This document shows positions 1 to 6,000 of a stretch of 64,000 nucleotides of DNA, piece after piece. The stretch lies in NCBI RefSeq assembly GCF_054482525.1, contig NZ_CM137006.1. One strand, given 5' to 3'. Every line of letters starts with the position of its first letter. The stretch's first letter is position 1. Position numbers: made by a program.

Positions 1-3000
1 TTTGCCTTTGGGCTTGGGCTTGGCTTCTGGCTACAATCTGGTAAGAATGCCGATGAAATTTCGGCTATTAAATCAGTTCATGCTGAACAGGTGAGGGCGG
101 TAACACCTGACAGTACCAGCGATTTACCGAGACTTTCTATTGATTCTTTCTCTCAGCTTGGTTTTGATGTTTCTGTTACGTTTGTTGACGCTAAGGGTAT
201 GAAGTACCAGTATTTTGATTTAATTAAAGATGGTTATTCCGTTGATATTAAAGATGCCTGCCGAATTGTTATCAGAAAAGGCCATTATTTACAAAGCGTC
301 ACCTGTCAGGAGTAATATTACTATGCGTTTATTTTGCATTGCCATCTTATTCATTTATTCTTTTTGTGTTTCTGCTGAAACTGTTAATCTTAATAATTCA
401 TCCGTTCGTTCATTTGTCCAGTGGTATTCATCAAAAACTGGTAAGCCTGTTATTGTTAACCCCGATGTTAAAGGCTCCGTAACAGTATTTAATGCTGATG
501 TTAATCCCACAAATATTGATGACTTTTTCAAATCTGTTCTGAATGCTAATGGATTTGTCATGCTTTCTGGTAATCCTGCGGTAGTATCTTTGCCGTCAAA
601 ATTACCGTCACAGATGGCATCAGACCCTGATGATTCCGATAATCAGTCTTATGACTCTTTTCCGCCAGAGCCATCCTGTCAGCCAGCGCCTGTGGCGCTC
701 ACTGTCAGAAATTTTAAGCTGACAAAAGTACGAGCGTCTGATGTTCAGCAACTGGTTAAAATTTATCTGGATTCGAATGGCGGGGGTAATGTCGTGGATT
801 ATCCCGGCAATAACTCCCTGATTGTATCTGCGCCTGACGAGCTACTGCCTGTTCTGTCCAATTTCATTAACTCAGTTGATGTTGCCCGTGATCAGGTACT
901 CATTCAATCGCTCATGTTTGAAACCAGTTTGTCTGATGGTGTTGATTTGTCATTTGCAGCTGGCTCTGCATCCGGCCATAAGGTGGCGGGGGGTTTTAAT
1001 ACTTCTGCGCTGGGTAATGCTCTTTCTACGGTGGGCGGCTCTTTTGGTATTTTTGATGGTAACGTGTTGGCGCTGTCTCTGCGTGCTGTCCAGAGTAATT
1101 CACGCTCTAAGGTGATTTCAACACCGCGCATTCTTACTCAGTCCGGTCAGACTGGTTATATTTCCGTAGGTAAGAATGTGCCGTTTATCACAGGAAAGGT
1201 AACGGGTGAATCTGCTGGGGTAAATAATCCGTTTCAGACTATCGAACGTCATGATGTTGGCGTTTCTCTCAAGGTAACGCCTGTTGTCATGGGGAACGGG
1301 CAATTAGTTTTGACCATCGATACCCGCGCCGATTCAATCAGCAATGATGACCAAGCATCTGATATTATTACTAATCAGCGCCAGATTCAGACCACTGTTC
1401 AGATTAAGGATGGCCAGACTCTCTTACTTGGTGGGTTGATTGATTCATCATCCAGCAATGCTGACCGTTCTGTACCATTTATCAGCAAAATTCCGGTAAT
1501 TGGCTGGCTTTTCAGGAGTAAAGCTGACAGTAATGAGCAACGCATTATGTATGTCCTGCTGACTGCTCATATTATTCGTGCGCTTTGATGGGGCCGTGGC
1601 GGGTGCGTTAAGCCCCGGTATGGCCCCATCAAGAGCCAGATTTTACGTCTCACCACGGAGCCTCTATATGGCCTTAAAACTGACAGGATATGAACAGAAA
1701 AACATCTTCTAGGTGATTCAATTACTTAGAGGTTTTTATGTCTGTAAAAAGTAGGGGCGCGATCGACTTCCTGGTGGTCGCCTGAAGTCTTACCGTCGTG
1801 TTGGTTCACATTTTACCAGTTGTTCCAAGTGGTTTGATAAATCACCGTCCTGGTATCGCAATATGATGATGACCCGGCCAGAGCGCCGTGAAGTCAGAAA
1901 GCTTCTCAATCAGGTTGTACGTGGCCGTGACGCTGACGGCATCGCATTTCCGGTCAGCAACAAGCCATTTGCATGGCGGTGGTGAACATTTTTAGCCGCT
2001 AAAACTTCATGCTGACGGAATTATCGAAAACCCCGTACAGCAACAAAACTTGTTTTTGTTGCTGTACGGGGTTGGCCAAGCCGCAACAGTACTCTATTTT
2101 TCTTTGGAGTTAATTGCGGCGCGGCTAGGGATGTATCAGACTTTAATCTTAACTACTTTTTCAGTGCCGGTCATAAAACTAACCAGCTTCTTGCGGCCAT
2201 CGGGATACTCTTTAATGACACATCCTTCTGGCGTATTTTTTTCAGCGTAATAAATAGGGACGCCACTAAGAAGACAGGCTCGGGCTGCTTCACCGACATC
2301 ATGTTCTAGTTGCTGCTCGAAAACAGTCAAGAACTCTGCTTCCTCTGATGGTGTCATTTCAGCTAAATATGATAAGTCCATAAATGCTCATGCCTTCTGT
2401 AATTCATTGCTTAGTAACAATGATGAACAGGCCTGATTGGTGAGGTCAGGCTGTTCACTTACTGCTGACAGACATTTGATTCTGATTCGTTTGGAGAAAC
2501 GGATGATTTTGAATCATTGTCGATAGTAACCAGTTGACGGCCAGTGTCAACGATCCCCGCCAGATTCTGCCATCCTTACCATTGGTGCGCATAATGTATA
2601 TTATGTTAAATGGAATTTGAGTGATGCGAAGCGATTTTCCAGTCGTCGTTATTACTTCAGGGTTCCAGAACATAAAGCCTCTCCTCTTTCATGATTGGCC
2701 TGTGCATACCGGATATAGGCTGGCAGGTTTGCCGTTTGCCGCATCTTCCCTGCGTTGAAGAGTCAGGCTGGCAAACTGCGTGCAAATGAACACCCCCTCT
2801 TTCTATCAACACTTCAGACAGCTTGCGGGAATGAGTTCACTCCGGTATCAGAAATGGCTACGCCTCAATGAAGCCAGGCGACTGATGCTGAATGAACATT
2901 ACGATGTCACCACTGCAGCCTATGCTGTCGGTTACGAAAGCTTATCCCATTTCAGTCGGGAATATTCGCGGATATTTGGAGAGTCACCTAAGAGAGATAT

Positions 3001-6000
3001 TACTAAATTAAGAAAGCCTCTTGGTCAGCTTTAATAAACCCTGCACTTATCTGGTTAGAGCATTTCGGCATTAGTTTCACTATGCAAACATTAACCATAG
3101 CTAATGATTTATAGCCATATAAACCATTAGTCGCTCTTGACTTTTCCTGACACTTCCCTTGTTCGCAATAATATTCTGTTTAGTCGCTGTTTATAAATAT
3201 CATGCATAATGAAATCGTCATGTTATTTAGCGACATAAAATGTCTTTGCAAATACTCTCTACAACAAGTGCTGCAATAAACTTGTTGTGATTAGGTGTCC
3301 TTGTAATTTAAAGATATTATCGTTCTTCGTGAAATGTAATAACCCTGGAAACTATATTCTCAGGGCAACAACCAATTAAGAATGATTCTTGTTTTATAAG
3401 CAATAACAGAATGACTTAATTGTTAACTCTCTTTATTCAGCTACTTAAATATAAATTTTGGAGAATTATGAAACTCAAACATGTCGGTATGATTGTCGTT
3501 TCTGTGTTGGCGATGTCGTCTGCTGCGGTAAGCGCAGCCGAGGGTGATGAATCAGTAACGACCACTGTTAATGGCGGTGTTATTCATTTTAAAGGTGAAG
3601 TGGTAAATGCCGCTTGTGCGATTGATTCAGAATCAATGAACCAAACGGTTGAGCTGGGTCAGGTTCGTTCTTCTCGCCTGGCAAAAGCGGGTGACCTCAG
3701 CTCTGCCGTTGGCTTCAATATCAAGCTGAATGATTGTGATACCAATGTTTCCAGTAATGCAGCTGTTGCATTCCTGGGTACTACTGTCACCAGTAATGAC
3801 GATACCTTAGCGCTGCAGAGTTCAGCGGCAGGCTCTGCCCAAAATGTCGGTATTCAAATTTTGGACCGTACGGGGGAGGTATTAATACTTGATGGTGCCA
3901 CTTTTAGCGCTAAAACCGACTTGATTGATGGCACGAATATACTGCCATTCCAGGCTCGTTATATTGCTCTCGGGCAGTCAGTAGCTGGTACTGCAAACGC
4001 TGATGCGACCTTCAAAGTTCAATATCTATAATTCAATCTTAAGATGGCTATACGTCATCTGAAATTGAAACAGGGTGTGTGTTGCATGGCTACGCACACC
4101 CGAGCAATTCACCAATGTTCATCTCATTATTAATGAGGAATAGTTTGTGTTTTGGAGCGGTATGAAAAAATCACATAATATCTAAACGATCAATAAACAA
4201 CAGTAGTTAAACTTACTGTTATTTAAAATATTTACTTTGTAGCAAGGTTTTCCTATTAAAAGAGAACCAACATTTATTACAAACGCATTAAGTCTGGAAA
4301 CCCGGCGAGTCGCCAATGTATTAGCAACATTTACCGATTGTCTGATGTAACGGTTTCCCCGCTTATCCTCTTAACACATGGAGAATGCATCAGATGCAAA
4401 CTACGCGTACCCCCTACTCTATTTCCTTTATGGCGACAGTGTTACTTTTATTGCTCTTTGCTTGCCATAGCACCGTTGCCAACGCAGCTGTCGCACTGGG
4501 TGCGACGCGGGTAATTTATCCGGCAAACCAGAAACAGGTTTTATTGCCTGTCACGAATAATGATCCTGCCAGTGTCTATCTCATTCAGTCATGGATAGAA
4601 AATGCAGGTGACCAAAAAGACACCCAGTTTGTCATTACGCCACCGCTTTTTTCCATGCAAGGTAAAAAAGAGAATACGCTGCGGATAATCAACGCCACTA
4701 ATCATCAGTTACCAGGCGACCGTGAAAGCCTGTTCTGGGTTAATGTCAAAGCTATTCCTGCTATGGAAAAAGACCAGAAGAATGAGAATACATTACAGCT
4801 GGCAATTATTAGCCGCATAAAAATGTTTTATCGCCCCACGAACCTGGCAATGGCACCTGAAGAAGCGCCTGCAATGCTTCGGTTTCGTCGCAGCGGTAGC
4901 AAACTTACTCTTATTAATCCAACGCCCTACTTCATTACCGTAACAAATATGAAAGCAGGAAATAGCAATCTCCCAAATACCATGGTGCCGCCAAAAGGTG
5001 ATGTATCGGTGGATATCCCGCATGCTGCAACCGGGGATATCAGTTTTCAGACGATCAATGATTACGGTGCATTAACTCCGCGTATTAAGGCAACCATGCA
5101 GTAAACCAGTGACCTAATTAATAATAAACTCAATCGGAATTAATAATGACAGCCTTTCGTGCCGCATTTAAGGCATATCGTATGCATCAGGTATTACTAC
5201 TGCCTCGCTTTGCACGGCTTACCATTGCCCTTGGCTTAGCAACTGCGGTTTTTCCCGTTGACGCAGAGTATTATTTTAATCCACGGTTTTTAAGCAATGA
5301 TCTTGCTGAATCTGTCGATTTATCCGCCTTTACTAAGGGACGCGAGGCACCACCTGGTACATATCGGGTCGACATTTATTTGAACGACGAATTTATGACT
5401 AGTCGGGATATTACTTTTATTGCAGATGATAATAATGCAGATCTCATCCCATGCCTGAGTACAGACCTTCTTGTCAGTCTTGGCATAAAAAAATCAGCAT
5501 TATTAGACAATAAGGAACATTCGGCAGAAAAACATGTGCCGGACAACAGCGCATGCACACCACTTCGGGATCGTTTGGCTGACGCATCATCTGAGTTTAA
5601 TGTTGGTCAGCAACATCTATCACTCTCCGTTCCGCAAATTTATGTTGGCAGAATGGCTCGCGGCTATGTTTCTCCTGATCTGTGGGAAGAAGGAATAAAT
5701 GCTGGGCTTCTAAACTATAGTTTTAATGGTAATTCTATTAATAATCGTAGTAACCATAATGCAGGAAAATCCAACTATGCATATTTGAATTTACAGAGTG
5801 GCATCAACATTGGTAGTTGGCGACTGCGCGATAACTCAACGTGGAGTTATAACAGTGGGATTAGCAATTCATCTGACAGCAATAAATGGCAGCATATCAA
5901 TACGTCGGCTGAACGTGACATTATTCCCTTACGCTCACGCTTAACGGTAGGTGATAGTTATACCGATGGCGATATTTTTGATAGTGTGAACTTTCGTGGC

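Follow-up and report, generated by a model that had tools for sequence, protein, structure and literature searches.

The window analysed here is a stretch of 64 000 nucleotides from contig NZ_CM137006.1 (NCBI RefSeq assembly GCF_054482525.1). Near its left end it carries the chromosome-dimer resolution site dif, followed on the right by short relics of two genes, the 3′ end of an AraC-family regulator gene and the promoter of the F9 fimbrial operon. The features are as follows.

2584..2611, plus strand: dif, the XerCD chromosome-dimer resolution site, GGTGCGCATAATGTATATTATGTTAAAT, an exact 28 bp match to that of E. coli
2621..2692, minus strand: 5′-terminal relic of a DUF2255 gene (approximately the first 29 codons), antisense to the regulator remnant (blastn and tblastn)
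2621..2758, plus strand: spurious 45-codon open reading frame (ORF) that reads the relics antisense (ORF listing)
2722..2766, minus strand: relic of an alpha/beta-hydrolase gene (residues 201–215; blastn and tblastn)
2768..3034, plus strand: yneL, the 3′ remnant (residues 217–304 of 304 plus the stop codon) of an AraC_N/HTH_18 regulator gene, annotated as ORF 2780..3034
3181..3217, plus strand: F9 operon promoter (−35 TAGTCG, −10 CATAAT, transcription start G 3217), matching the 5′-RACE description (PMC3966885)

No exact match to the 28 bp dif sequence was obtained in 100 shuffles, and both the site and its orientation are the same in K-12, PCN033, EC554 and MEC2025-PR and in the Enterobacter, Citrobacter and Klebsiella loci. 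The regulator remnant lies to the right of dif, with 156 bp between the end of dif and the start of the homology. In the window and in relatives an Inovirus-like filamentous prophage is integrated at this dif, on its left. The order of neighbours (hipBA or the prophage, dif, the remnant and the f9/yde fimbrial operon) is common to the window and K-12. The f9 promoter bounds the relic zone on the right and lies outside the pseudogene; the F9 operon is intact in the window, whereas ydeT is truncated in K-12.

The regulator fragment and its intact counterparts

The 84-residue ORF at 2780..3034 (plus strand, GTG start) matches the Pfam families HTH_18 (E = 5.6e-20; 71.8 bits against a cut-off of 33.6) and HTH_AraC (E = 9.2e-8). 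With BLASTP, window 2768..3031 aligns without gaps to residues 217–304 of a 304-residue orthologue from Citrobacter youngae (86% identity), and the homology therefore begins at 2768, 12 nt 5′ of the start codon at 2780. The remnant comprises the 88 codons at the 3′ end of a 304-codon AraC_N + HTH_18 regulator gene, 29% of the whole. The AraC_N domain (PF06719; residues 31–182 of the full-length orthologue, E = 3.1e-45) is missing entirely. The two-helix-turn-helix domain of approximately 100 residues is also incomplete, as it begins at about residue 204 of the full-length protein while the remnant starts at 217 and the ORF at about 221. Matches from a PDB sequence search were limited to the generic AraC DNA-binding domain, and none of the NCBIfam equivalog models reaches its cut-off.

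The fragment is the E. coli pseudogene yneL, which is already known and annotated: K-12 yneL (b1506; an AraC-family pseudogene between dif/hipA and ydeT) has the same locus and orientation and is a remnant of the same gene. In PCN033 the sequence is identical, and PGAP labels it a pseudogene ('incomplete; missing N-terminus'). The gene is shortened relative to intact orthologues and is disrupted further within the population, with a frameshift in the K-12 allele and loss of the remnant from B2-type genomes. Compared with K-12 yneL, with which it is collinear, the window allele is longer (residues 217–304 against approximately 236–304), carries no frameshift and is about 92% identical at the nucleotide level. 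Protein-search matches of 120–154 residues were considered as longer versions and set aside, being either chimeric ORFs, in which relics or dif are read into the helix-turn-helix frame, or proteins cut at contig ends. In other strains, fusion of the spurious relic ORF to this frame yields chimeric calls of 120–139 residues (P0003, P0004, P0006 and P0011).

Intact ORFs of 304 residues are present in E. vonholyi, C. youngae, K. michiganensis, Enterobacter sp. MGH24 and E. mori. The search for full-length homologues thus bears out the sequence-only reading that just the C-terminal helix-turn-helix half of an AraC regulator is left in the window. Over the 88 residues that remain, identity to the AraC_N + HTH_18 regulators of Enterobacter, Citrobacter and Klebsiella is 86%, but those genes are full length. 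They share with the remnant both its side of dif and its orientation and have the same two genes, for the hydrolase and DUF2255, as neighbours. In three of the five genomes with intact ORFs, dif is 4.4, 2.6 and 1.4 kb 5′ of the regulator in the same orientation; in L006 and L007, from the K. pneumoniae complex, it is 5.6 kb 5′. A scan of genome contigs for the regulator gave seven loci, none of them from an Escherichia species other than E. coli. The long-read Klebsiella assemblies L005–L007 contain frameshift artefacts, and a 128-residue Klebsiella ORF that might have been a third truncation state proved to be the full-length gene, split by assembly frameshifts that are not the same in the three.

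In E. vonholyi, the module content examined includes the hydrolase and DUF2255 genes and an iron-type alcohol dehydrogenase gene divergent from the regulator. YqhC/YqhD-type pairs combine an AraC_N regulator with a divergently transcribed iron-type alcohol dehydrogenase. By analogy, the regulator studied here may belong with such pairs, sharing the domain architecture and, in E. vonholyi and in the argW island, the divergent alcohol dehydrogenase neighbour. The argW/intS island of approximately 129 E. coli genomes carries a full-length copy of the regulator (WP_000622442.1); because this copy is at another chromosomal site and its DNA is 93% identical to the Citrobacter gene, it was probably acquired separately.

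A full-length gene masked by sequencing errors would also leave an apparently truncated frame, and errors of this kind do occur in the Klebsiella assemblies named above, although none was found in the window. Geometry refutes this explanation, to which we give practically no credence: the missing part requires 648 bp, while only 156 bp lie between dif and the remnant, and no full-length frame can be restored upstream by correcting errors. Moreover, hundreds of complete E. coli genomes carry an identical remnant structure, so that the yneL remnant is not a sequencing artefact.

Relics, alleles and activity of the fragment

The interval between dif and the remnant was examined for frameshifted N-terminal remains of the regulator, as the sequence-only reading had proposed. 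Sequence comparison, including blastn and tblastn, detected none in these 156 bp and located the antisense DUF2255 and hydrolase relics instead. Window 2648..2692 is 91% identical to L007 3710–3753 and to E. vonholyi (blastn), where the counterpart lies 1353–1396 bp from the start of dif. With tblastn, DUF2255 residues 1–29 align to window 2621..2692 at 45% identity, the support for 2621..2647 being weak; one tblastn alignment that ran left across dif to 2560 was taken as a spurious extension. The hydrolase relic is 91% identical to L007 4312–4354 over 43 bp (blastn) and 80% identical to the E. vonholyi hydrolase over 15 residues (tblastn). A stretch in the upstream frame, HTGYRLAG, resembles GHGYRIGK of the orthologue; it was dropped as a candidate because blastn and tblastn place it within the antisense hydrolase relic. 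Window 2648–2692, 2723–2765 and 2768 onwards correspond in order to 3311–3354, 3913–3955 and 5722–5989 bp from the start of dif in L007. The interval is therefore pieced together from collinear relics of neighbouring genes, which implies several internal deletions.

The alleles of this flank were counted in 5426 complete E. coli genomes, and at least three states of erosion are present. The window type occurs in 813 of the 5426. The K-12 type (3033 of 5426) is shorter, with the regulator preserved only from residue 236 onwards, and carries a 1 bp frameshift; it lacks the hydrolase relic of the window and keeps a different relic, matching L007 3460–3541, that is absent from the window. In the B2 type (324 of 5426) the remnant is gone; hydrolase residues 221–253 are retained and nothing of the regulator.

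Deletions in the same flank were also found in the K. pneumoniae complex, where one recent, independent deletion is present in K. pneumoniae ATCC 13883 and another in L008 (5.3 and 5.7 kb) relative to the 99%-identical L007. Measured from the first base of dif, they begin at 146 and 458 bp; their junctions share at most three bases (a TGA microhomology in one and 1–2 bases in the other).

The ratio dN/dS is 0.03–0.15 among intact orthologues and remains low, at 0.06–0.19, between the E. coli remnants and intact orthologues. The window lineage differs from another E. coli allele by seven nonsynonymous and three synonymous changes, giving a dN/dS of 0.67 from very few sites. The low values for the remnants could reflect either a fairly recent truncation or some persisting constraint, 88 codons being too few to separate the two.

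In the literature yneL is an annotated pseudogene without a reported function, and its deletion is reported to have had no effect in one test. The ligand/dimerization domain and part of the first helix-turn-helix are missing from the fragment, which most likely has no activity. That the 84-residue ORF might instead encode a functional DNA-binding protein in its own right, such as a small regulator acting on the adjacent F9 operon, seems very improbable to us. The frame is open both in the window and across the 813 genomes with this type of allele, its differences from intact orthologues are mainly synonymous, one paper reports a microarray signal for yneL and the ORF ends 147 bp 5′ of the f9 −35 element. 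Against this, the first helices of the domain that begins near residue 204 are lacking, the allele is frameshifted in the 3033 K-12-type genomes and the fragment is fully lost in the 324 of B2 type. No Shine–Dalgarno sequence is visible before 2780 or 2786, and a promoter scan for the remnant returned nothing convincing, the promoter-like matches upstream overlapping dif itself. The description of the F9 operon notes that the region 5′ of f9 is variable and contains no evidence tying these regulators to f9 control (PMC3966885).

Origin of the truncation

The sequence-only reading took the truncation to fit repeated integration and excision at the dif-proximal junction, which would here mean Xer-mediated movement of mobile elements integrated by XerCD (IMEX), such as filamentous phages. 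The prophage integrated at this dif fits such a history, as does the leftmost E. coli deletion, which ends approximately 10 bp from the site. The prophage is, however, on the opposite side of dif from the remnant, and the same remnant alleles occur whether or not it is present: all four combinations of prophage presence and remnant allele are seen (the prophage is absent from K-12 and PCN033 and present in EC554 and MEC2025-PR). Xer recombination is conservative and leaves the DNA on either side in place. A search allowing up to nine mismatches found no second or hybrid dif-like site in window 1–12000 or in any related locus, and no IMEX DNA was found to the right of dif, where the DNA consists instead of collinear relics of the chromosomal module. 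The Klebsiella deletions, with their microhomology junctions, begin at the distances from dif given above. We regard this cause as unsupported, very unlikely and largely refuted, although dif may have had some role in the first E. coli deletion.

Very probably, yneL is a dead regulator fragment left by stepwise, lineage-specific internal deletions to the right of dif that were independent of the prophage. The ancestral module would have lain directly to the right of dif, with flavodoxin-like, DUF2255, alpha/beta-hydrolase and iron-type alcohol dehydrogenase genes all on the minus strand and the AraC_N/HTH_18 regulator transcribed divergently at the far end. We infer both that the module was inherited vertically from a common enterobacterial ancestor and the order of the deletions. 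In the Escherichia lineage, several separate deletions within the flank would have worn it down, sparing the short collinear DUF2255 and hydrolase relics and the 3′ end of the regulator, and individual E. coli lineages would then each have lost different pieces. Cut down by ordinary stepwise deletions rather than by phage integration and excision, the yneL remnant is itself ordinary.

Such deletions could be ordinary in mechanism and still recur because of dif, through division-linked double-strand breaks and hyper-recombination at dif and the terminus, with selection keeping dif itself; we consider this possible but doubtful. The same flank has been eroded independently, in the three or more E. 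coli alleles and the two K. pneumoniae-complex deletions, and dif-proximal content differs in Enterobacter and Citrobacter. Published work portrays the terminus as genetically unstable, the dif region being lost in recB mutants (PMC5638614), and fragile sites are reported in the replication-termination region (PMC8213236). The right flank, to which the analysis was confined, may nevertheless be no more prone to deletion than any stretch of dispensable accessory genes. Only tentatively might the right flank of dif be a recurrent deletion zone across the Enterobacteriaceae, with one module eroded independently in E. coli, the K. pneumoniae complex, Enterobacter and Citrobacter.

The yneL fragment is of little importance in itself, as an annotated pseudogene of the best-studied bacterium in an interval whose variability has already been described (PMC3966885). 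The present work contributes its origin: the full-length parent gene of yneL, the conservation of the module of that gene beside dif in several genera, and a decay that proceeded in steps, differed between lineages and had no connection with the dif-integrated phage. If the wider pattern is true, the recurrent erosion could be the natural footprint of the division-linked breakage around dif reported from the laboratory, with only dif preserved by selection; erosion proved to exceed the genome-wide baseline would link the fragility of dif in the laboratory to real genome evolution.

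The remnant and its surroundings

The locus is the E. coli terminus, and the window carries the following features around dif.

Features around dif (window coordinates)
230..1588: secretin (pIV-like) gene by Pfam, the end of a filamentous prophage left of dif
2584..2611: dif, the exact 28-bp E. coli sequence (0 matches in 100 shuffles)
2780..3034, +: 84-codon ORF from the ORF listing; Pfam finds HTH_18 (E 5.6e-20) and HTH_AraC (E 9.2e-8) in its product
3181..3217: F9 promoter (-35 TAGTCG, 18-bp spacer, -10 CATAAT, transcription start G 3217)
From 3468: fimbrial operon (F9, Fml/yde), right of the remnant

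The sequence-only reading had described an AraC-family gene remnant at 2780-3034 beside dif, and this description is correct as regards the ORF, its HTH_18 match and the nearby exact dif. From dif rightwards, the window sequence is matched at 100% identity by three complete genomes (PCN033, SCU-102 and 19KM1776). Over the interval from dif to f9 (window 2584..3400), E. coli alleles are about 5-8% apart in nucleotide sequence, which is far above the usual divergence of E. coli core DNA; 4679 of 5198 E. coli records fall within the 90-95% identity band.

The remnant is the already known E. coli pseudogene yneL. At the same position K-12 has the order hipB, hipA, dif, pseudogene, ydeT, with the pseudogene annotated as 'helix-turn-helix domain-containing protein; frameshifted; missing N-terminus', and the PCN033 counterpart is a pseudogene without an N-terminus according to PGAP. 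yneL is regarded as a pseudogene with no known function (PMC9308461), and its removal within a 525-bp deletion had no effect in the one functional test found (bioRxiv 10.1101/2025.09.02.673814). All matches in a protein search with the fragment were short (at most 154 aa); the longer of these were considered as longer versions of the gene and rejected as gene-caller chimeras or proteins cut at contig ends. The published F9 promoter, mapped by 5'-RACE (PMC3966885), can be recognised in the window, with 147 bp between it and the downstream end of the remnant; that study reports no evidence that the variable regulators upstream of f9 have a role in its control. The F9 operon is intact in the window (883-aa usher), whereas ydeT is truncated in K-12.

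The full-length regulator gene in other genera

A longer open frame is present in three long-read K. pneumoniae-complex assemblies (L005-L007). Translated in three frames, it resolves into one whole gene of about 300 codons; the frameshifts that interrupt it are placed differently from assembly to assembly and are therefore assembly errors. In the reconstructed protein, HTH_18 comes after AraC_N (PF06719), which spans residues 31-182 (E 3.1e-45). When one genome was scanned for each species, intact 304-codon ORFs were found in Enterobacter vonholyi, Citrobacter youngae, Klebsiella michiganensis, Enterobacter sp. MGH24 and Enterobacter mori, and K. pneumoniae ATCC 13883 has a truncated one. Regulator residues 217-304 align without gaps to window 2768..3031 at 86% identity. 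The earlier claim of truncation is thus right: these residues are all that the window has, and intact orthologues exist elsewhere. What is left, 29% of the gene, covers the second helix-turn-helix completely and, of the first, its recognition helix.

The intact gene lies downstream of dif in the same orientation, at a distance of 5.6 kb in L006 and L007, 4.4 kb in E. vonholyi, 2.6 kb in C. youngae and 1.4 kb in Enterobacter sp. MGH24. In E. vonholyi the intervening module is on the minus strand throughout (a flavodoxin-like gene, a DUF2255 gene, an alpha/beta hydrolase and an iron-type alcohol dehydrogenase, Fe-ADH), and the regulator is divergent from these four genes. A 75-bp segment of the E. 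vonholyi locus (L009, 1878..1952 bp from the dif start) is found on the other side of a 694-bp stretch of the hydrolase gene from where it stands in the other genera (L007, L010 and L012), a small local permutation.

A second, intact regulator copy, accompanied by the alpha/beta hydrolase and a truncated Fe-ADH, is found beside intS and tRNA-Arg (the argW island) in about 129 E. coli genomes, for example at L016 9040..12484 in E. coli WP2-S18-ESBL-07. The 93% identity of this copy to Citrobacter DNA suggests that it was probably acquired separately.

Deletions right of dif

The sequence-only reading had pointed to 2612..2779 as a place for frameshifted N-terminal remains of the regulator. None were found there by blastn against the Klebsiella interval or by protein-level comparison; relics of other module genes are present instead. 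The blastn alignment of the window with the long Klebsiella interval is a collinear patchwork.

Window pieces aligned to L007 (numbered from the start of dif)
Window 2648-2692: L007 3311-3354, 91% identity; first ~29 DUF2255 residues, antisense
Window 2723-2765: L007 3913-3955, 91% identity; hydrolase residues 201-215, antisense
Window 2768 onward: L007 5722-5989, 85% identity; regulator from residue 217

On these alignments, we interpret the interval between dif and the remnant as the residue of the ancestral module after several internal deletions.

Diagnostic junction queries of 5426 complete genomes assigned 813 to the window-type allele, 3033 to the K-12 type, the commonest, and 324 to the B2 type. 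The K-12-type allele keeps a different relic (L007 3460-3541) and the regulator only from about residue 236, with a 1-bp frameshift. In the B2-type allele (Seattle 1946, L018), dif is followed on its right by 2.4 kb of other genes; hydrolase residues 221-253 survive as a relic, and the regulator remnant is absent. The first 113 bp after dif in this allele are 79% like the E. vonholyi flank. Each allele retains pieces missing from the others, which implies that all three must descend from a more complete ancestor through separate later deletions. The B2 genes right of dif (L018 1665..3638) include a truncated LysR gene, an SDR oxidoreductase and a 138-aa 'acetylxylan esterase', the last 35% identical to the module hydrolase.

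Two recent Klebsiella deletions have likewise taken out the module together with the regulator's 5' part. K. pneumoniae ATCC 13883, more than 99% identical to L007 where shared, lacks positions 459-5740 (from the first base of dif), with TGA common to the junction; L008, from the K. pneumoniae complex, lacks 147-5806, with 1 or 2 bases in common. Neither begins at the dif site itself (458 bp remain ahead of the first and 146 bp ahead of the second), and both look like ordinary illegitimate deletions. The left flank, too, is decaying in some lineages: in PCN033 (L002 3041..3933), which matches the window exactly from dif rightwards, a remnant of an ISNCY transposase truncates hipA on the left.

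Cause of the truncation and significance of the fragment

Window 1..2583 belongs to an Inovirus-like prophage that is integrated at dif, and forms its right end; the window begins inside the prophage, which leaves the left attachment site out of view. The rest, in related E. coli loci (L003 and L004), encodes a Zot-domain protein, a DUF2523 protein and a II/X-family replication protein. The stretch from the secretin gene to dif also contains a perfect GC-rich hairpin (CCCCGTACAGCAACAAAA / TTTTGTTGCTGTACGGGG, 2030..2081) and an 81-codon ORF (2136..2381, -) without a Pfam match, both presumably phage-borne.

Repeated integration and excision at dif, to which the truncation had been ascribed, is not supported as its cause. 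dif separates the prophage from the remnant, and all four combinations of prophage presence and remnant allele are found (the prophage is absent from K-12 and PCN033 and present in EC554 and MEC2025-PR). No second dif-like site with at most 9 mismatches (about 0.15 per 12 kb expected by chance) occurs in window 1-12000 or related loci, no element DNA was found right of dif by blastn comparison of loci, and Xer recombination is conservative. Of the E. coli deletions, the leftmost comes to within about 10 bp of dif, which would suit such an origin but would also be expected if deletions can approach dif as long as they spare it.

The fragment is most likely without function, because AraC_N is missing, the DNA-binding domain has lost its first helices, the commonest allele is frameshifted and B2 strains have no remnant. 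The changes that set the window lineage apart from another E. coli allele, 7 non-synonymous and 3 synonymous, would point the same way, given a dN/dS of 0.03-0.15 among the intact orthologues. Counting against this reading, changes between E. coli remnants and intact orthologues are mostly synonymous (dN/dS 0.06-0.19). These values fit either a fairly recent decay or some persisting constraint, and 88 codons are too few to separate the two.

Taken together, the remnant observation itself is confirmed and the fragment is of low importance. The right flank of dif has been eroded repeatedly in several lineages. The terminus is described as a zone of genetic instability, with the dif region lost in recB mutants (PMC5638614), and fragile sites are reported from the region where replication terminates (PMC8213236); terminus instability is a possible cause of the repeated erosion.
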